Source of the DNA: Coraliomargarita sp.
GTDB lineage: Bacteria > Verrucomicrobiota > Verrucomicrobiia > Opitutales > Coraliomargaritaceae
Assembly (NCBI GenBank): GCA_965216325.1
Contig: OZ244160.1
Location: 1,792,001-1,856,000, forward strand
DNA length: 64,000 nt
Direction of reading: 5' to 3'
In this document: positions 1 to 12,717 of the stretch, in pieces
How the letters are laid out: each line of letters opens with the position of its first letter
Numbering within the stretch: position 1 is the first letter of the stretch
Translations under genes and position numbers: made by a program
The notes under the pieces: generated by a model
The model's input: only the letters and a program-made list of their open reading frames with translations
Database searches by the model: none
What the model was told of the DNA's origin: nothing

Positions 1-1003
1 CATGCCCCTTCTGCGGCACAATCTTGGTCTCGGATGAAAGCGTCATATCGCCCGCAGCCATCTGCACCATCCAACTAACCAAGTCGACCCCGGTAACCAG
101 CTCCGTGACGCCATGCTCAACCTGTAGGCGCGTGTTCACCTCGAGGAAGTAATAGTCACCAGTCGAATTGTCATAGACGAACTCAACAGTGCCAGCAGAG
201 CGATACTTCACAGCCTTAGCGAGATTGAGCGCTGCTTCCTGCAAACCATCAATCACGGCATCCGCGACATTCACCGGCGGCGTCTCTTCGATGACCTTCT
301 GATTGCGGCGCTGTGCGGAACAATCGCGCACCCCCAGAGAGACGACATTTCCCTGCCCATCACCAAAGATCTGCACTTCAAGGTGACGTGCTTGCTGGAC
401 ATATTTTTCCAGGAAGATTCCACCTTGGCCGAAATGGCTTTTACTCAGGCGTTCGACACTTTCAAAGGCATCTACCAGTTCCGCTTCGTCGGCACACACT
501 TGCATGCCGATACCACCGCCACCCGCAGTGCTCTTCAGCATCACCGGATAGCCAATGCTCACTGCAATCGTGGTAGCCTCTTCGACACTCTGAAGCAGTG
601 GACTACCCGGCACCAGAGGAACCTGATTCTCTTCCGCGATTCTCCGTGCTTCATGCTTCAGACCGAAAGAGATCATCTGCTCCGGAGTCGGACCGATGAA
701 GGCCATACCTGCCGCCTCGCAGGCCGCAGCAAAGTCTGCATTCTCACTCAGCAAACCATAGCCGGGGTGAATCGCTTGCACATGACGGTCATGGGCAATC
801 TCGAGAATCTTATCAGCCTGTAGATAACTCTCGCTCACCGGAGATGGACCAACAGAGAAGGCCTCCGTCGCCATCGCTACGTGCGGCGCATTCTTATCGG
901 CTTCCGAGTAAATCGCAACCGATTGAATACCAAGTTGATCGAGTGTGCGAATAACCCGACAGGCAATCTCACCTCGATTGGCAATAAGAACTTTAGAAAA
1001 CAT
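1..1003 (-). CDS. uca: Urea/guanidine carboxylase, N-terminal biotin carboxylase domain (runs off the window edge)
   Basis: Hand translation from ATG at 1003 gives [20 protein letters not shown]...[13 protein letters not shown]...GGGGIGM...[17 protein letters not shown]...[16 protein letters not shown]. It lies downstream of two DUF1989 genes. Absent from the ORF track because it is truncated. Confidence 0.85.
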
Positions 1004-1013
1004 GAGTGGATAC

Positions 1014-1076
1014 GTAGCACAGGCATCTTGCCTGTGTATTAATAACTGTGATGCGCAGACTAGATGCCTACGCTAC
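1014..1076. repeat. REP-like inverted pair (GTAGCACAGGCATCTTGCCTGTG ... GACTAGATGCCTACGCTAC)
   Basis: GTAG-headed imperfect palindrome with a degenerate inverted partner in the intergenic gap. Confidence 0.6.
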
Positions 1077-1077
1077 T

Positions 1078-1713
1078 TTAATCCCAGATGAGAGCTTCAA
1101 CTGGTGTTGGGTTATAAGCGTTACAGGGGTTGTTGAGCTGTGGGCAGTTTGAGATCAGACACATAACATCACGCTCAGCTCTGAGTTCAACATAGCGCCC
1201 AGGCGCGGAGATTCCATCGGCGAACGTCAGTTTCCCTTCAGGTGTGACGGGCACATTCATGAAGAAATTAATATTACAGGTAATATCACGCTTACCAAGA
1301 TCAGGACCCCAGTGTTGGACACCGCAAATAAAGCTATCACGGCAGGCGTGCATGTGCTCCTTATCATGTGCATAGCGCATCGTATTACTTTCTCTTGAAC
1401 AGGCTCCGCCAAGCGTATCATGGCGGCCACATGTGTCAGCTACAATTCGTAGCAAAACATCGCCCTGTGTTGAAATAAGCTCCGTTCCAGTGGTCAAGTA
1501 GAGCGCTTGCTGTCGTTGAATCGTATCAGCCGCGCTATAGCGGTTTTCTGCGTCATGTGCATCGTAGAACAGTGTATCCGCTGCCTGATTTCCTTCGAGA
1601 TCAAGTATGCGCAGTGTCTGACCCTTCTTGATTTCATGTAGCCAGAAGTCTCCGGCCAAAATCACTTCACGATAAACGGCTGTTTCAGGATTGAGTGTGC
1701 TTTCGGTTAACAT
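1078..1713 (-). CDS. cgdB: Urea carboxylase-associated DUF1989 protein (carboxyguanidine deiminase subunit B-like)
   Basis: Motifs [49 protein letters not shown]; position next to the carboxylase. Confidence 0.85.
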
Positions 1714-1725
1714 GGTGCTCTAGTC

Positions 1726-2475
1726 CTAAAATCTAAGTGTGTTATAATCTTCTGTATTCTCGAACGCTCGGACGTTTTCTGGTCGACAAATTCGGCACGG
1801 ATCCTCTGCCGTAGCCCGTTCATTCTTGAAGACCTCGAGTTTCACATGTCCGGGGTCATAGTCTGGATTGGGGTCCAGTGGATGTTGGCAGGTGTTGAGC
1901 ACTACAAGTGTATCCAATTCAAAGCGCAAGTCGACATAGCTCCCCGCCTTTGAGGCTCCACTCACATAACTAAGTTTACCTTCTTCATCAGATACAACTT
2001 TGCTAAACCAATTCAAATTCGGCACCAAGTCACGTTTACCAAGGCCCCACTTTGCAAGCTCGATCAAGAATGCGCGCTGTGCATCTCGGTGGCAATCATT
2101 GCGTGCTTCCTGATAATTTTTAACGCCATACTTAGCTTCTATCAGTTTCTCATCAGAGCAACCACACACAGTATCATGCCAGCCCATAGTATCTGCAGTG
2201 ATCGAACAAAACAAACGGCCCATATCTGAATGCACACAGTAAGGTGCAGTTAAATAGAAGATGTGCTGCCCCTTCAAGGTATCGGGCATATTGTAACGCT
2301 CATGCTTCTCATAAGCATTGTAGAGGAGCATACTGACATTGGCTTTGCCTTCGATATCAGTCATTCGCAGCGTCTTGCCGCGACCGATCACTTTGGACCA
2401 CATCGTCGCACCATGCAATTTCGTTTCGTATATTTTCTCGGTAGCACCAAGCGGATTGGGTATTTTTGTATTCAT
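1726..2475 (-). CDS. cgdA: Urea carboxylase-associated DUF1989 protein (carboxyguanidine deiminase subunit A-like)
   Basis: Motifs [37 protein letters not shown]. Start placed at MNTKIP to avoid overlapping the upstream gene. Confidence 0.85.
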
Positions 2476-2498
2476 CTTTCGGATACGTTTGCAGAAAG

Positions 2499-3917
2499 TT
2501 AATATAGCCGCGCGTATTGATTGATCTCCCACTGGCTGATGCGCTGGTGGTATTGGCGCCACTCTTCAGATTTATATGTGATGAACTCATTGCGTAATTC
2601 ACTGCCAAGCACCTCCTCAACAAATGGGTCTGTGGCAAAAGCATGCACTGCTTCATCAAGACTCCGTGGCAGCTCACTGATACCACGCTCAGCGAGCTGA
2701 GCAGGTGACAGCTCGTAAAGATTGTCTTCTTGCGGATCACCCGGATCCAGTTGCTCTTTGATTCCCTGTAGGCCCGCGGCAAGCGCGAGTGCAGCCGCCA
2801 AGTATGGATTACAGGCCGCATCTGCATTACGCGATTCAACACGCCCGCCTGCCATCGGCACACGGAGCGAGTTGGTGCGGTTGTTACTACCATAGGAATT
2901 GAATACCGGAGCCCATGAGTAGTAGGGCATCAAGCCACGGCGCACCAAGCGCTTGTAGCTGTTGACCGTCGGGGCGAACGTCGCACACAAGGCTGGTCCA
3001 TGCTTCAATATACCGGCGCTGAACTGATAGCCCAAGTCTGTGAGCCCGAGGCCGCGTGGATCCTCCTCCTTTGAACATTTGAACAAGTTCTTCCCTGTCT
3101 TCTTGTCGTAGAGCGACATGTTGAAGTGCGCCCCACTGCCGGTCTTATCCGCAAACGGCTTCGGCATGAAGGTAGCAAGCAAACCTTCTTCCGCAGCATA
3201 ATGCTTAGCCATGTAACGGAAGAAGACAAAGCGGTCACACATGGTCAATGCATCGGCATATTTGAAGTCGAACTCAAACTGTGAATTTGCATCTTCATGA
3301 TCAAAGGAATACAACTCCCAGCCTAGATCATCGATAGTCGTTGCCATCTTATCGAGCCAGTCGTAACGATCCATGAATCGCTTAAAGTCGTAGCAGCTTT
3401 TCTCCAGATTATCGTCGCTATTCGGGATCTCGAGTTGCCCATCTTCGGTATGGCGGACCACGAACACCTCGCACTCGATGCCAAGATTCATACCGAAGCC
3501 CATTTCCTCTGCTTCCTTAAGAACCTTCTGCAGCACAACACGTGCATTCACCTCGTAAGGTTCTCCATGCAAAATGTTATCGGCTGGAATCCACGCCATC
3601 TCAGGGTTCCACGGCAGGGGAATGATCATTCCCAAGTCCGGAACAGAGGCGATTTCATCATCATTCGGACGCTGACCTAGACCATCTAAGGCATAGCCCG
3701 TGTAGAGCTCGGATCCATGAGCAAACTCTTCAAAGTGACTGAGTGGCACCACTTTGCCCTTAGGCACACCATGAATATCCACATAGTTGCCCGCACAATA
3801 CTTAACCCCAAGCTTTTCAAGTTCCGACTGAATCGCTCGGATCTGCTCGTCACTCCAGCGCTCCTCGCTGTAGAGATTACCCGCTGCTGTATTGTATTTG
3901 GCGTAGAATTCTTTCAT
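2499..3917 (-). CDS. Glutamine synthetase-like protein, GlnT/GmaS type (probable gamma-glutamyl-amine ligase)
   Basis: Motifs [41 protein letters not shown] (Trp at the GS Glu-flap position), NRT..RVP, NPYL. Confidence 0.85.
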
Positions 3918-3930
3918 TTGTATTCAGATC

Positions 3931-4707
3931 TTAGATACGTTGAAAATACGATGTAGCGAGTGGTGCTTTCTCCACCAATCCTGCTTCAATACGTGTTGCT
4001 AGTTCGGTGACTATCTGCTCGAAGAGTCGTTCGCCTGCGCTCTGAGTTGCTTCACTTGGTTTGCCAGTCACACCATTTGTACTGGTGCGGTTAACCGGAT
4101 GCGCGAACACACAGTCAGCGGTTCGATCAGGATCATCCGAGCACTTTAGGAAATCAGGACGCACCATGCGTGGCGCAAGGGACATCATCAGGCTGGTTTC
4201 GGCAGCATTCGCATGCCAATCGTCACCATCTGTTGTGAAGGCAGCTTCTATTTCCGGCGAAAGATCACCATCATTAAAGGCTGCGATCATCAAATCATCA
4301 TACCGGCAGCGCATTGTGTCTAAAGCGCAGCGAACTGCAGCGGCATTGCCCACATGGCAATTAACCATGAACCATCGGCGGATACCAGCCTTATAGAGCC
4401 AATCACCAATATCGCAAAGAACCGCGATCATCGTTGTTGGGCTCAACGCCAAAGTCCCAGGCCAGCGGTGCGAATGACCAATCGAGCAGCCATAACCGAG
4501 GGTTGGTAACATTGGCACATTGGTGCGCTGTGCGACTTCACGGCACAGCTTATCAGCGAGGACACTATCCATGCCTGTTCCCAGATGAGGACCATGTTGC
4601 TCGGTCGCTCCCAGCGGCAGAATCGCGGCATCACAGCCACTCTTGATGGCATCAAGAATCTCTGGCCATGTCATCTCACTCCACTGACTGTTCATAAGCT
4701 CGGCCAT
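3931..4707 (-). CDS. Creatininase-family amidohydrolase
   Basis: Motifs [45 protein letters not shown]. Confidence 0.9.
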
Positions 4708-4709
4708 GT

Positions 4710-5609
4710 TTATTCAACATCATCGTTCGCACTCGTCATACGCACCATTGGCAAGGCATGATCTTCGGCGTCTGTCTTTGGGTGAATTAAATCTTCGAGA
4801 CGTTGCTTGGTCGCAAGAAACTCGGGACTCAGCATACAGTCGGGTGTGCGTGGTCGTGGCACCGGCACTTCGATGAACTCGTGAATCTCGCCCGGGTTCG
4901 CCTTCAAAACCAAGATCCGGTCGGAGAGATAGATTGCTTCGTCCAAATCGTGTGTGACGAACATGATCGTGACGTCGACATTGCGCCAGATCTGCAGCAA
5001 GTGGGATTGCATCTGGCAGCGTGTGTGCGGATCCAACGCACCAAAAGGCTCATCCATAAAGAGAATCTGCGGCTGGTTTGCTAACGCACGGGCAATCGCA
5101 ACGCGTTGCTTCATACCTCCTGAGAGCTGACTAGGATACTTCTCAGCCGCATGTGCGAGGCCAACAAGTTCGATCCACTGCAGCGCTTCTTGCTCAACGG
5201 CGGTGCCGGAACGTCCGTTGACTTCTAGGCCAAACATTACGTTCTTTTTCACACTCAGCCATGGAAAGAGTGTATAGCCCTGGAAGACCATACCACGGTC
5301 CGCACCCGGGCCGCTTGGCTCTTCACCATCGAGAAGGAAACTACCACCTGAAAGCGTTTCCAAACCAGCAAGCATACGAATCAGTGTCGACTTACCGCAA
5401 CCCGACGGTCCAATCACCGAAATGAACTCGCGGCGATGCATGTTAAATTCAATCGGGCTGAGCACATCGACGGTGCCCTTGGCAGTGGTGAAGCTCTTGC
5501 TAACACCTTTAACCTCCAGCTTTATTGGTCGCTTGTATATCTCGGCGAACCGTGCACGGACGGCTTCGCTTTGCTCTTTGTAGCTCGGTAGTTCGATTAC
5601 ATCGTTCAT
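4710..5609 (-). CDS. ABC transporter ATP-binding protein (NitT/TauB family)
   Basis: Walker [31 protein letters not shown]. Confidence 0.95.
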
Positions 5610-5612
5610 TGC

Positions 5613-6998
5613 TTATGCCTTTCCGTTAACAGGTGAGTCGTAGACCTTGCGGTCGAAAATCCAGAAGAAGAATCGTCCAATCAAACCGTGCTTCTTTTCA
5701 GAGGCTTCCGGTGTCCATGGGAAGAGATACTTTCGCAGGGATGAGAGGATTTGGTCGGTCGTGAAACCGGTGATACCAATTAGAATGATGATCGGGAACA
5801 CACTATCGAAGTTGCGCCAGCGGCCTTGCGTCTCGAGGAACTCAGTCAAACCACTCTTCACACCAATGAGCTCCGCAATCACCAGCCAAGTCCAAGCCCA
5901 GCCGAGCAAGATTCGTAGGTCATTAAATAAATTCGGCGTAATCCCCGGTAAAATAACACGACGAATAAGTGTCATGTTCTTCGCGCCGAGTGTTTGGGCG
6001 GCTTCAATCAGAGAGGCATCGAGTTGACGCGTTGTATTCGCGACCACCAGCACGAGTTGGAAGAAGGTGCCGACAAAGACCAAGGCGATCTTGGGTGCGT
6101 CATGCGCGAGAAAGATTGCAACCAAGAGCGTGCTGAACGCCGGTGCTGGCATATAGCGGAAGAAATCGATAAAGGGCTCAAAGAGACGAGAAAAAAAATC
6201 AAAGGTCCCACAGAGAACGCCAAGTGGCACACCGAACAAAGCCGCCATCAAGAAACCGAGGAAGACGATCTTCAGCGAGTGTTTATAGCGCTCAAACATG
6301 GATGGCTTGTCCCCATCCGAAGTGAAGGTGAAATCGTCGATACCCTTGAGCATTACCTCGTGTGGTGCAGGTAGATAAACTGGATTGGCCGACTTTCCTT
6401 GCGGAACCAACTTTTCAAGTGGTGTTTCTGGTAGCAACTTCGAGGCAAACTCCGGCGAACGCTCCGACATCAAGACCCAGTTGCGCTCGATGATCGAACG
6501 GTTCTCGTCGGTGAACTTGACCTTCGTTTCCTCCAGTTCCCCTTCAGCAACATCACGCCAGACATAATAAAGTAATTCATCCTGATCCTTTTCATCCTTG
6601 GTTAGCCACCCATTGGCCACTGCAACTGATGAGATGTGTCGCATCTTCTTAACATTTGCACGGCGGATTCGCGAAGCGCTGCCTTCGACCTCATCGGACT
6701 GACGGGCTTCTAGGATGGCCGTGTTATCGGATTGAATTGCAGCGACAAACTCTGGGAAATAATCCTTCGATAAGTGATCTCCCGAAGTGAATACAGTCGT
6801 TACATCCTCACGATCTGCAGAGATCTGCAACTTTACATCTGGATGCCAAATAAATGGTGTGTAGCTAACAAATGCCCAAACAAGCAATGGCAGCATAAAC
6901 GACAAGATTGTCAGGAGAGTGCGGCGTTTCGCACTGAGCTCTTTGCGTATGGCAAACCAAGATGGCTGAGCTTTCTTACTGTTTTTTGCGATACTCAT
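5613..6998 (-). CDS. ABC transporter permease (NitT/TauC family) with a large soluble insertion
   Basis: [11 protein letters not shown] motif [24 protein letters not shown]. Confidence 0.9.
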
Positions 6999-7034
6999 GC
7001 AGAGATTGTTGCAGATCAGTCCTTACTTTTGGGC

Positions 7035-7066
7035 AAAAAGAAGGCGGGCCGGGTCCGGCCCGCCTT
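7035..7066 (-). terminator. Hairpin with U-tract between the binding-protein and permease genes (partial terminator or mRNA stabiliser)
   Basis: AAGGCGGGCCGG-GT-CCGGCCCGCCTT, with a T-run after it on the minus strand. Confidence 0.65.
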
Positions 7067-7106
7067 GAACACTAACTAACCAATAGGTTAAAAAAGGGTA
7101 AGTGGA

Positions 7107-8108
7107 TTACTTGAGCGACTCTGCGTATTCGAGCACCAGACTTGGGTCCAGATACTTGTCGGTATCGAGGTTTTCCTCGTAAACGCCCTGGTCGACATTG
7201 AACTGGTCAGCGATTACAGTGGAACCGTAAACCGAACCGAGGCCTTCAGCCTTCTTCCAAATTGGAAGCGCTTCTTCGAGACTCAGGATGTATGTGCCTT
7301 CGAAGAAGGGTTCGTATTCTTCAGGTGAAATTTCAACACGTGCTGCAAGGATCTCGAGTGCCTCATCGAGGTTGTCTTCATCCTTGAGGAAATCGACGAT
7401 CTTATACCAGACCTTCACGACCTTCGCCCAATCATCGCGACGCTTTTCAAGGCTTTCTGGGTCAACCGAAAGCAGATCGTAAATGATACCCGGTGCGTCC
7501 GCAGAGGTCAGCACAGGTGTGGAACCTGGAACCGTCTTGAGCGCTTGACCGGAGTTTGGCTGCCATGCACCAATGGCGTCGACCGCGCCAGATGCAAGCA
7601 CCTGTGGTGTTTCGTTGGTTGGAACGTTGACGATTTCAAACTCGGAAGGATCGATACCTGCGAGCTCAGCACCCTTAAGAAGTAGAAGATGAATCACGAA
7701 ACCTTCTTCGAGGCCAATCTTCTTACCCTTGAGGTCTGCCAGTGTTTTGATACCCGGCGCTGCAACGACCATGTCGTTACCATTTGAGTAGTCGTTGATG
7801 ATAATGCCGACCGAAGGCTTACCAGTACCTCCGGTAACGAGTGCATCACCATTGGTCATCGTCACTGCATCAATAAGGCCAGCGGCGTAAGCATCCATCG
7901 ACGCGACATAGTCCATCCATTGAAATTCGACCGCAATGCCTTCTTCTTCAAACCAGCCCTTATCGATACCGATTTGCCAAGCGACCCATCCCGGCCAGTC
8001 GCTGTAGCCGATCTTAAGTGGTTCTTTGGCGGACAGTGCAGAGCCGACGAAGAGGCTCGTAACACAGAGGAGAGTAGCCTTGAAGGCCGAGGTCTTGATT
8101 TTGAACAT
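7107..8108 (-). CDS. ABC transporter substrate-binding protein (urea carboxylase-associated, NMT1/SsuA-like)
   Basis: Signal peptide; [37 protein letters not shown]. Start placed at MFKIK, after an AAGGA RBS. Confidence 0.9.
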
Positions 8109-8195
8109 GATCAATTTCCTTAGATGTGTAGCTAGTAAGTCTTTCTCGTAGAGAACACGTCCTTCGACAGATCGGCCGAAGACAGGCACAGGATT

Positions 8196-8211
8196 TGCAG
8201 AAAGCATGCCA
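8196..8211 (-). promoter_or_regulatory. Sigma54 (-24/-12) promoter of the ABC/carboxylase operon
   Basis: Minus strand reads TGGCATGCTTTCTGCA, matching TGGCACG-N4-TTGCW with exact GG/GC spacing, about 90 bp upstream of the first gene. Confidence 0.75.
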
Positions 8212-8233
8212 ACCCTCGAAAAGTGTTGAAAAA

Positions 8234-8261
8234 GTAATATGAATAAACCTGAAAGTATTAC
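8234..8261. promoter_or_regulatory. NikR-type operator GTAATA-N16-TATTAC
   Basis: Perfect 6-16-6 inverted repeat between the divergent genes; same geometry as the E. coli NikR operator GTATGA-N16-TCATAC. Confidence 0.8.
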
Positions 8262-8287
8262 GATTTTCTAAACTCACAGCTATTCGT

Positions 8288-8743
8288 ATGACGATGGACA
8301 AAAATGATCATAAGGCGACTGCCGCCCGTATCAGTGTTTCGCTACCTCCACAGCTTGCCGCAGCGCTTGACAGGATGATTGAAGAGCGTGGCTTCCATAA
8401 TCGCTCGCAAGCGATTGCGGATATGATTCAGCAACAGCTAATTGAGCATCAGCAGGAGAAAAGCGATGCGGTCATGGCTGGCACGATCACGCTCATCTAC
8501 AATACTGCCAAGCCTGAACTCTTACAGAAGCTAACGCGTATTCAGCGTGAGCACATCCAAGAATGTATCAGCAGCCAGCATGTGCAGTTGGAAGGCGATT
8601 ACATCATGGAAGTTGTCTTGGTCCAAGGCCCGGTGCAGCGACTTCGTGAGATCACCGACCGTATGATCACCTGTAAAGGCGTCAGTTTCGGACGGCTGAC
8701 GCTCACAGATAAACTGATTCCGCAGGTGCACGGCCGCGGATAA
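8288..8743 (+). CDS. NikR-family ribbon-helix-helix regulator with a degenerate Ni site
   Basis: RISVSLP...[24 protein letters not shown] domain plus a C-terminal ACT-like domain (GTITLIYN...HV...MEVVLVQG...KGV..GRL). Confidence 0.9.
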
Positions 8744-8928
8744 TTGCGCATTTCTGCAAATGCTTTTCATATTATGCAGTATTCCTCGGAAACAACTTGG
8801 CGTAAATTTGGATCTTTTAACGCGCTTCATCCGATGCATGACTGTATTTCACCCTATCAAATAGAGTCGGCACTTGCGTTTGGAAGCGGATCACATTTTT
8901 TCGGCAAATCACTAACCCACAGAATACT

Positions 8929-10434
<1,506 letters not shown>

Positions 10435-10445
10435 TTCGATGTAAC

Positions 10446-10471
10446 GGCGGGCGCCCCATGGCACGCCCCTA
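10446..10471 (+). repeat. REP-like element, family GGCGGGCGC-N-CGCCCCTA(C) (also at 45041-45068 and 60917-60945)
   Basis: Three intergenic copies with conserved arms and variable loops, each next to a terminator. Confidence 0.6.
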
Positions 10472-10477
10472 ATTTTT

Positions 10478-10507
10478 CAAAGCCTCCCGGAAACGGGGGG
10501 CTTTTTT
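10478..10507 (+). terminator. Intrinsic terminator of gnd
   Basis: AAAGCCTCCCG-GAAA-CGGGGGGCTTTTTT. Confidence 0.85.
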
Positions 10508-10639
10508 CGTATCAGAATTCCTTTAGATCAGCTGTAAAATGCGTGCAGGCGATCAGCATCTCAAGCTAGACAATGTGATCGCGTATTAGTGCCCTCGCAT
10601 TCAAAGATCAATAAACTCAGCGAACTAACAAATTATCAG

Positions 10640-11524
10640 TTAGGATACCGACTTCCCGAAGTAGGACAACAGCCACATTTCTTTCCACAGACGATAACGG
10701 CCATTGTAGGTAATCTGTCCCTCTTCTTCCTGATGCATACGGTGCACCAAAAAGCCGTAATCCGTATTTAACCGCTCCAAGATCCGTTGCTGCTCATTGA
10801 TTTCCTCAAGCGGTGTATCTTCGAAAGGAATCGATATCATATTCGACTTAAGCAGGCGCTTGTAATGATAATTAAGCAATCGTGGCAGACGGCCTATTAG
10901 CGGCTTCCTAGACTGATTCCAGGCCTCTGGATAGTAACCACCAAAGGGCAAGAAATGATTGTCGGTAATCAGGCGCTGTCCGTCCTCACCAATCGTGCTA
11001 ATTGTATAACAAGCAGCGGCGTCTCCCTTACGTTTCGGAACAAAAAGCACCTGAATACGGGTTAACTGATCATCGCTTTCGTAAACCGAAGCACGTAAAA
11101 ATGTATCTTCAAAAAGCTCAGCCTTAAGCGCACAGACAGGCTTAAAGTCCTGCTTTCGCAACCAATCCTTTAATTCGATAAGCTCCTTATCGACAGGCCA
11201 TTCATCCCCATCATGGTTCACTCTAAAACTCGGAAACAATGGTAGATCGCTATTGCTGAGTGCTTTGATCGCAATCCAGTTGTAGCCAGTCTCCAACAAA
11301 AACCAAATACACAGTCCAGTGACAAAATGCACCCAATCCGGCCGCAAGGATAGTTCTGTAGCACGCAGAATAAAGGCAAAGATCGCTGCAAATAAAAACC
11401 AACGCATCCAGCGTGCGAGCACGTTCAACACTGGAAGTTGCACACGCCCACCGAGAATGGGTAAGAAAATCGCAAGCAAGGCACAGGCTAGAAGCAGGTA
11501 TTCGACTGTAGTTTCGTTAAGCAT
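10640..11524 (-). CDS. Hypothetical membrane protein (about three N-terminal TM helices plus a soluble domain)
   Basis: 294-aa ORF with a hydrophobic N-terminus; no recognised motif. Confidence 0.75.
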   Translation of the reverse strand: MLNETTVEYLLLACALLAIFLPILGGRVQLPVLNVLARWMRWFLFAAIFAFILRATELSLRPDWVHFVTGLCIWFLLETGYNWIAIKALSNSDLPLFPSFRVNHDGDEWPVDKELIELKDWLRKQDFKPVCALKAELFEDTFLRASVYESDDQLTRIQVLFVPKRKGDAAACYTISTIGEDGQRLITDNHFLPFGGYYPEAWNQSRKPLIGRLPRLLNYHYKRLLKSNMISIPFEDTPLEEINEQQRILERLNTDYGFLVHRMHQEEEGQITYNGRYRLWKEMWLLSYFGKSVS

Positions 11525-11530
11525 TTAATG

Positions 11531-11559
11531 AAAAAGGACGACCACTCAGGCCGTCCTTT
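11531..11559 (-). terminator. Probable terminator after dnaN
   Basis: AAAGGACG...CGTCCTTT stem with a T-run on the minus strand. Confidence 0.6.
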
Positions 11560-11589
11560 GGAAAATGAACAGTGAACGGAGTTCCCTAA

Positions 11590-12717
<1,128 letters not shown>

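Follow-up and report, generated by a model that had tools for sequence, protein, structure and literature searches.

Guanidine has only recently been seen as a widespread nitrogen source, and two routes for its use have been described, one by way of a carboxylase and one by way of a nickel guanidinase. In the guanidine carboxylase operons of Pseudomonas syringae and Raoultella terrigena, as set out in the part of PMC12186494 available to us, an NMT1-type importer is encoded with CgdA, CgdB, a carboxylase of the Asp/Asp type and an allophanate hydrolase; the cyanobacterial gdmH operon described there comprises a guanidine-I riboswitch, GdmH, two nickel-delivery proteins and an ATP-binding cassette (ABC) importer. 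We analyzed a 64,000-nucleotide stretch of a Coraliomargarita sp. genome (assembly GCA_965216325.1, contig OZ244160.1, forward-strand positions 1,792,001 to 1,856,000; hereafter the window) that contains an operon with the same components as the carboxylase operons. The window operon differs from them in that genes for a glutamine synthetase (GS)-like ligase and a creatininase-family hydrolase are inserted after the importer genes, in having a NikR-like regulator and a sigma-54-type promoter instead of a riboswitch, and in a substrate-binding protein (SBP) that falls below the TIGR03427 cut-off. The genome is a single contig of 3.06 Mb, and the ligase points to Coraliomargarita species (Verrucomicrobiota) as its nearest named relatives. 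Our best overall explanation, which we hold tentatively, is that this is a guanidine operon in which the ligase and the hydrolase act as a gamma-glutamyl pair assisting the core pathway.

The guanidine carboxylase core

Eight genes lie in a row on the minus strand in the order SBP, permease, ATPase, creatininase-family hydrolase, GS-like ligase, CgdA, CgdB and carboxylase, separated by gaps of 2 to 108 nt; open reading frame (ORF) and domain and family searches bore out the gene content, order and strand given in the original prediction. The operon runs past the window edge, so that only the N-terminal 334 aa of the carboxylase, a biotin carboxylase (2..1003, minus strand), lie inside it, and the remainder of this gene and then the allophanate hydrolase lie beyond. 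The complete carboxylase of 1199 aa scored 1820.1 bits against TIGR02712 (cut-off, 1303.85). According to the available part of PMC11410670, guanidine carboxylases have Asp at the position of Kluyveromyces lactis residue 1584 and Asp, not the Asn of urea carboxylases, at 1330. When the sequence was aligned to the K. lactis enzyme (3va7 and 5i8i, chain index + 593), Asp700 in the motif AIDFTGD corresponded to residue 1330 and Asp950 in GLGDVY to residue 1584. The original prediction had called for inspection of the specificity residue of the carboxyltransferase domain; both positions used to recognize guanidine carboxylases hold Asp.

The two deiminase subunits both exceeded the cut-offs of their curated families. 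CgdB (UAAP2, DUF1989; 1078..1713, minus strand) scored 333.7 bits against TIGR03424 (cut-off, 284.7), and CgdA (UAAP1, DUF1989; 1726..2475, minus strand) scored 327.2 bits against TIGR03425 (cut-off, 205.95). We moved the start of CgdA from 2562 to the ATG at 2475, which is most likely the true start because the longer ORF matches TIGR03425 only from residue 44 onward. The allophanate hydrolase, just outside the window, appears in the assembly as two ORFs (359.9 and 317.6 bits to TIGR02713) whose frame is broken at a run of T (L013:10445-10460, left of the window). Contigs from 4 of 4 public sequencing runs had one extra base in this run; three of the four are labelled as the same organism, possibly being the source data, and the fourth is a sediment metagenome with a depth of only 2.5. 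By the ORF coordinates, adding a single base brings both pieces into one frame. An assembly error is thus the likeliest cause of the break, and the pathway would be complete.

Since the carboxylase carries both signature Asp residues, it is well supported by sequence that the core is the known carboxylase/CgdAB/allophanate hydrolase pathway for guanidine, a core that the original prediction had recognized. The carboxylase would make carboxyguanidine from guanidine, CgdAB would convert carboxyguanidine to allophanate and ammonia, and allophanate hydrolase would break allophanate down to ammonia and CO2. A urease is encoded elsewhere in the genome, and urea thus has its own route.

The ligase and its hydrolase partner

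The GS-like glutamate ligase (2499..3917, minus strand) scored 618.6 bits against TIGR03105 (cut-off, 469.6). Its flap reads YYSWAP where Escherichia coli GlnA has GYEAP, with Trp335 where the flap Glu would be, and Thr73 occupies the position of Asp50' of GlnA, while the catalytic Asp, Glu and Arg are conserved. The Trp in the flap had been pointed out in the original prediction and is accompanied, as in amine ligases, by loss of the Asp50' equivalent; the likeness drawn there to PuuA was imprecise, as PuuA has Tyr, not Trp, at this position of the same alignment. The best matches in the PDB were a glutamate-methylamine ligase (9qur, 378 bits) and RhGmaS (7cql, 291 bits), and ordinary GS chains scored 250 bits or less. 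With GmaS, as represented by these two structures, the ligase shares TIGR03105, the flap Trp, the missing Asp50' and the catalytic Asp, Glu and Arg.

The amine pocket of RhGmaS, as given in the available part of PMC7948447, consists of Tyr147, Gln175, Asp177, Glu179, Glu186, Asn188 and Lys30'. Five of the seven are kept in the ligase, with Gln175 replaced by Ser204 and Asn188 by Asp217; together with Thr73 these form a Ser/Asp/Thr (SDT) signature where GmaS has Gln or Ala, Asn and Ala. All 158 sequences at 59% identity or more carried this signature. All fetched loci together yielded 265 GS-like sequences, 247 of them unique, and the SDT signature was found in 157 unique sequences, 134 of which had a creatininase-like gene within 3 kb; the remaining 23 were mostly on short contigs or in loci whose second paralogue adjoins the hydrolase. 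GmaS-type residues (Ala or Gln, Asn, Ala) were found in 87 unique sequences, of which 83 had an MgsC-like gene within 6 kb and none (0/87) had the hydrolase nearby. Conversely, 151 of the 157 SDT ligases had no MgsC-like neighbour, and the other 6 came from Armatimonadota loci that also hold a GmaS-type paralogue. A locus scan seeded with P0125, which returned 2 Methylacidimicrobium relatives and 78 loci at 33-39% identity, was of use only for GmaS-type references.

A maximum-likelihood tree was built from 58 rows, namely 56 of the 247 unique sequences picked for spread (191 omitted) and E. coli PuuA and GlnA. All 31 signature sequences and 2 derived Methylacidimicrobium sequences fell on one branch (SH-aLRT 100) apart from the mgs-linked group; the tree comes from a quick search only, and its root is unsure, with PuuA and GlnA as distant outgroups on very long branches. 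The phylogeny that had been proposed as a check thus set the ligase in an SDT clade of its own. By its residues, its clade and its neighbouring genes, the ligase is classed as a separate subfamily, sister to GmaS and not GmaS itself; GmaS was rejected as its identity on the separate clade, the two invariant pocket changes and the missing mgs linkage. The two Methylacidimicrobium ligases (L172 and L173) nested in the signature clade have a Ser/Val/Ser pocket and a long branch, and no hydrolase neighbour lay in their fetched flanks.

The hydrolase that takes the place of mgsABC as partner of the ligase (3931..4707, minus strand; PF02633, 230 bits) has the fold of creatininase, a binuclear metal hydrolase. 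It scored only 75 bits against the solved creatininase (1j2t/1q3k) and 121.7 bits against the creatininase equivalog family TIGR04448 (cut-off, 235), the latter score making a creatinine-specific role unlikely. Glu36, His38, Asp47, His118, Glu170 and His165 align with what we take, from the creatininase structures, to be the metal ligands and the catalytic His, and 144-145 of 145 unique orthologues retain them. Val and Gly stand where creatininase has Tyr121 and Glu122, and the position of Glu122 was never Glu among the 145 orthologues, being Gly, Thr or Ser. The protein is, to judge from these residues, an active-looking metal hydrolase with a different pocket and not a creatininase proper. 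Creatinine, the substrate that gives the family its name, is a cyclic N-acylguanidine. When a plasmid collection was probed with the hydrolase, 29 records were returned, all below 36% identity, and no orthologue was among them.

We consider it most economical that the pair would first gamma-glutamylate guanidine, or a simply substituted form of it, and then hydrolyse the acylguanidine. The ligase would draw on ATP and glutamate to convert guanidine, or a simple N-substituted derivative such as methylguanidine, to an N-gamma-glutamyl (acyl)guanidine, which the creatininase-fold hydrolase might then cleave; in lineages with a Rieske N-demethylase and a formaldehyde-handling gene, cleavage would follow oxidative demethylation. 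The pair would in this way serve the guanidine core as a gamma-glutamyl carrier or trap, feeding or assisting it. A comparable arrangement is the gamma-glutamyl carrier pathway of E. coli (PuuA/PuuD), in which a GS-like ligase likewise stands beside a hydrolase; about half of the related loci also have an oxygenase, so that the logic of ligation, oxidation and hydrolysis is common to Puu-type pathways and these loci, although the window itself has no oxygenase. Gamma-glutamyl carrier systems for aniline and isopropylamine offer further comparisons. The window hydrolase differs from PuuD in being of the creatininase fold and not class-I glutamine-amidotransferase-like, and no class-I amidotransferase-like domain was found among the operon genes.

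The same residues bear on the idea that the ligase is a dedicated glutamine synthetase capturing the ammonia burst of guanidine breakdown, with the hydrolase playing a separate and unrelated role. Ammonia is common to the carboxylase and guanidinase pathways, both of which are contexts of the ligase, TIGR03105 is named glutamate-ammonia ligase and its cut-off was exceeded, and ammonium is weakly accepted by RhGmaS, as stated in the available part of PMC7948447. The flap Glu and Asp50', to which the same part ascribes a key role in ammonium handling by GS, are however absent, the genome already holds a GlnII-type GS gene that would serve ordinary ammonia assimilation, and the tight pairing with the hydrolase (134/157) and with Rieske oxygenases would go unexplained. 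We regard this reading as quite unlikely. At both of these positions the ligase departs from E. coli GlnA, having Trp and Thr, and the thought that it is the sole GS of the cell was dropped, given the GlnII-type gene.

Linkage to guanidine genes and riboswitches in other genomes

The ligase was used to fetch 80 loci, nearly all labelled Verrucomicrobiota, a gene being scored as present from 35% identity and 40% query coverage upward. Fifty of the 80 loci were at least 15 kb long, and many gene misses were due to contig ends. The hydrolase was present in 76 of the 80 loci and in 48 of the 50 long ones, and the corresponding counts were 70 and 50 for the ATPase, 62 and 49 for the SBP, 46 and 38 for the NikR-like gene, 45 and 37 for cgdA, and 36 and 32 for the carboxylase. 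The co-occurrence survey that the original prediction had called for therefore found the extra genes conserved together with the carboxylase genes, so that the lack of conservation named there as a refutation was not observed. Full-length carboxylase was also encoded in 5 of 5 genomes whose ligase lies apart from one, versus 1 of 14 controls.

In Opitutales the genes form a fused single operon as in the window. Verrucomicrobiales have two modules, in many loci with 4-8 kb of other genes between them, and the NikR-like gene directly precedes cgdA. Genes for a GbcA-like Rieske oxygenase (24/50), a GFA (formaldehyde-activating) protein (16/50) and an FGE-sulfatase-like protein (23/50) were found between the modules, and some Verrucomicrobiales loci have, in addition, another importer and a second ligase paralogue with the signature. 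This second paralogue (L052:6996-8423 and 16 further loci, in Verrucomicrobiales and Opitutaceae) is 42-46% identical, has the same Ser/Asp/Thr residues and directly follows the hydrolase, with the Rieske oxygenase separating it from the main ligase. An FGE-sulfatase/PvdO-like protein and a neighbour of 338-359 aa without a family match recur between the modules (L038:15000-16749 and L052:13009-14594).

Outside the Verrucomicrobiota, the whole operon was found with its order kept in five gammaproteobacterial loci, including that of Thioalkalivibrio sulfidiphilus, and the ligase-hydrolase pair also occurs in Armatimonadota and in one Thermodesulfobacteriota metagenome-assembled genome. An island in Armatimonadota (L096:676-13334) holds a DmmA-like gene, a haem N-demethylase-like gene, an APC permease, a MOSC protein, a molybdopterin oxidoreductase, the hydrolase-ligase pair, an MgsC-like gene, a DAO oxidase and a GmaS-type ligase.

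Guanidine riboswitches lay in or beside the ligase operons of several relatives. A guanidine-II riboswitch was located between cgdB and the carboxylase in 3 of the 5 gammaproteobacterial operons, and the available part of PMC12186494 gives this as the published position. In the Thermodesulfobacteriota locus a guanidine-I riboswitch precedes cgdAB, and the Rieske oxygenase, hydrolase, ligase and importer are transcribed divergently. Seven genes pointing the same way follow a guanidine-II riboswitch in Thiomicrorhabdus chilensis, the last of them being SBP, hydrolase and ligase. Derxia gummosa has two guanidine-I riboswitches leading into transporter genes, and the stretch between these riboswitches contains the ligase and a Rieske oxygenase. 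The T. chilensis run (L155:2180-9344) encodes in turn a fatty-acid-desaturase-like di-iron protein, an MBL-fold lactonase-like protein, a TIM-barrel protein, a DMT transporter, the SBP-like protein, the hydrolase and the ligase; its SBP-like protein has neither a permease nor an ATPase alongside.

Three Synechococcus loci have a guanidine-I riboswitch followed by an agmatinase-family gene of the GdmH type, hypA, hypB, an SDT ligase, SBP, permease and ATPase, and the start of the ligase overlaps the stop of hypB. Neither the carboxylase nor the creatininase-like hydrolase was found in these three loci. Their layout matches that of the gdmH operon exactly, with the addition of the SDT ligase between hypB and the importer, a gene that goes unmentioned in the available part of PMC12186494. 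No substituted guanidine is implied in these guanidinase operons. Riboswitch control is nevertheless no proof that guanidine is the substrate, because methylguanidine demethylation genes also sit in guanidine-switched operons, as described in the available part of PMC12508155.

These neighbourhoods bear on the pathway put forward in the original prediction, in which an imported substituted guanidine or urea is degraded by the carboxylase, CgdAB and allophanate hydrolase and the released amine is trapped by a GmaS-type ligase. The closest solved relative of the ligase is indeed a glutamate-methylamine ligase, and the flap Trp and the loss of Asp50' are as in GmaS. The Rieske oxygenase and GFA genes of the long Verrucomicrobiota loci, the occurrence of the pair among methylated-amine genes in Armatimonadota and the methylguanidine genes known from guanidine operons also speak for such a trap. 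The ligase clade, on the other hand, is apart from mgs-linked GmaS and has invariant pocket changes, the ligase also occurs in guanidinase operons switched by guanidine itself, and the role of the hydrolase is left unexplained. The gamma-glutamyl amide would moreover be a dead end; the window had been noted to lack mgs genes, and no mgs-type gene was found in the genome either (24 kb were outside this search), where the sole GXGXG domain sits in a 1550-aa frame taken as gltB. We think it unlikely that the ligase is an amine trap of this kind. The wider proposal that the substrate is something other than plain guanidine stands in part: the Rieske and GFA genes make a substituted form possible, but the Synechococcus operons imply none.

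The same comparison speaks to whether importer, hydrolase and ligase might be an independent module for another small amide or amine that is merely co-located in a nitrogen-scavenging island. The intervening genes that part it from the NikR-cgdAB-carboxylase module in many Verrucomicrobiales loci would fit such a module, as would the score of the SBP below the cut-off of the guanidine/urea-type SBP family. The linkage spans four phyla and includes fused single operons, however, and both the riboswitches in or beside the ligase operons and the genome-level co-occurrence of ligase and carboxylase argue against independence, which we consider very unlikely. The best reading of the pair is that it belongs to guanidine metabolism and not to methylamine assimilation.

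In the literature other than subscription journals and supplements, we found no description of the ligase-hydrolase pair. Creatininase genes appeared only in expression lists (PMC4617892, PMC12797532), and the parts of the guanidine-riboswitch literature available to us mention GS in general terms only.

Regulation of the operon and the balance of evidence

Upstream of the SBP gene, TGGCATGCTTTCTGCA at 8211-8196 (8196..8211, minus strand) fits the GG-N10-GC pattern of sigma-54 promoters, and rpoN is encoded in the genome. An element of this kind, with at most 2 mismatches and within 300 nt upstream of the SBP gene, was found in 26 of 62 related loci versus 4 of 310 shuffles, usually 61-133 nt ahead of the gene. 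It is well supported that the operon is under nitrogen-type control, for guanidine uptake and the carboxylase pathway, and transcription would start from the sigma-54-type promoter. A search of window positions 1-12000 with Rfam gave no guanidine riboswitch at E <=1, only a chance-level match to an L20 leader (E 0.76), and neither guanidine-I nor guanidine-II riboswitches were found in the genome; control by such riboswitches is common for the carboxylase pathway without being universal.

A gene for a NikR-family regulator (8288..8743, plus strand; NF003381, 123.7 bits, cut-off 105) is transcribed divergently from the operon and has the RHH and NikR_C domains (PF01402 and PF08753). Between the two lies the dyad GTAATA-N16-TATTAC (8234..8261), a candidate operator that matched once in the window versus 0.04 matches expected. 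The exact dyad was present in 15 related loci and, with up to 2 mismatches allowed, it preceded the NikR-like gene in 26 of 46 loci. The E. coli nik operator has two half-sites with 16-bp spacing, and in this as in its domains the regulator resembles NikR of E. coli and Pyrococcus horikoshii. It differs from them in being linked to guanidine genes and not to nickel uptake genes, and in having lost 3 of the 4 residues that we take to form the high-affinity nickel site (His76', His87, His89 and Cys95 in E. coli numbering): H76 is replaced by R, H89 by Q and C95 by I, and only H87 is kept. Among 47 NikR-like orthologues, none had Cys at the C95 position and 43 lacked His at the third ligand position. 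The operon is probably repressed by this nickel-less NikR-family protein binding the candidate dyad, and the protein would stand where other bacteria use guanidine riboswitches. A role for NikR as a nickel-sparing switch between urease and carboxylase was dropped, as the nickel ligands are absent.

The observed gene set, carboxylase signature, ligase subfamily with its neighbours and riboswitch tie in relatives are the framework within which we infer the substrate of the ligase, the reaction of the hydrolase and the bond it cuts, the function of the regulator and the benefit of a form that has no oxygenase. Several observations weigh against a gamma-glutamyl pair that assists the guanidine core. 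Guanidine as the substrate of the ligase is itself a reading from sequence. A Rieske oxygenase homologue is missing from the window operon and from the genome (one query), and a ligase with nothing but a reversing hydrolase would be a futile, ATP-wasting cycle here. The partnership is not obligate, as the Synechococcus loci have a ligase but no hydrolase; creatininase-family genes were encoded elsewhere in 8 of 9 genomes whose ligase has no hydrolase nearby, but also in 6 of 14 controls, and the count says little. In Armatimonadota the pair is set among methylated-amine genes (DmmA-like, HODM-like, MgsC-like and a GmaS-type paralogue), and no genome had the pair as its sole guanidine route, five genomes only being compared. 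As for regulation, 36 of the 62 loci had no sigma-54-like element and 20 of the 46 NikR-bearing loci no dyad at 2 mismatches or fewer.

A bolder scheme, to which we give a small chance of being right, is that gamma-glutamylguanidine is attacked at the amidino carbon, by the creatininase-fold enzyme or by the arginase-family enzyme in Synechococcus, to give glutamine and urea, with the NikR-like protein as guanidine sensor. If so, this would be a third route of guanidine assimilation that places guanidine nitrogen directly in glutamine, and the ATP-driven acyl activation would make the inert guanidinium a reactive acylguanidine. The regulator would then be a protein sensor of guanidine in place of a riboswitch. 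More generally, that such a ligase accompanies both known routes across several phyla, mostly together with a metal hydrolase and frequently with an oxygenase, implies that a reaction is missing from this metabolism, one in which guanidine or methylated guanidines could be activated, carried or trapped, and the NikR-like protein may sense what riboswitches sense elsewhere. The module is widespread in marine Verrucomicrobiota and may matter for the turnover of dissolved organic nitrogen.

Among the other genes of the window, a minus-strand ORF of 294 aa without a Pfam or NCBIfam match (10640-11524) adjoins dnaN. The importer is encoded on the minus strand by an ABC transporter ATPase (4710..5609; PF00005, 108.6 bits), a permease of 461 aa (5613..6998) and the SBP. 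In the permease the transporter domain (PF00528) covers residues 256-415 only, and about 200 N-terminal residues are unexplained. The periplasmic SBP (7107..8108) is of the NMT1/SsuA family, matching PF09084 and PF13379, and scored 141.6 bits against TIGR03427 (cut-off, 333.9). Its start was placed at the ATG at 8108, where the signal peptide begins; the start at 8207 given by the ORF finder falls within the promoter element.

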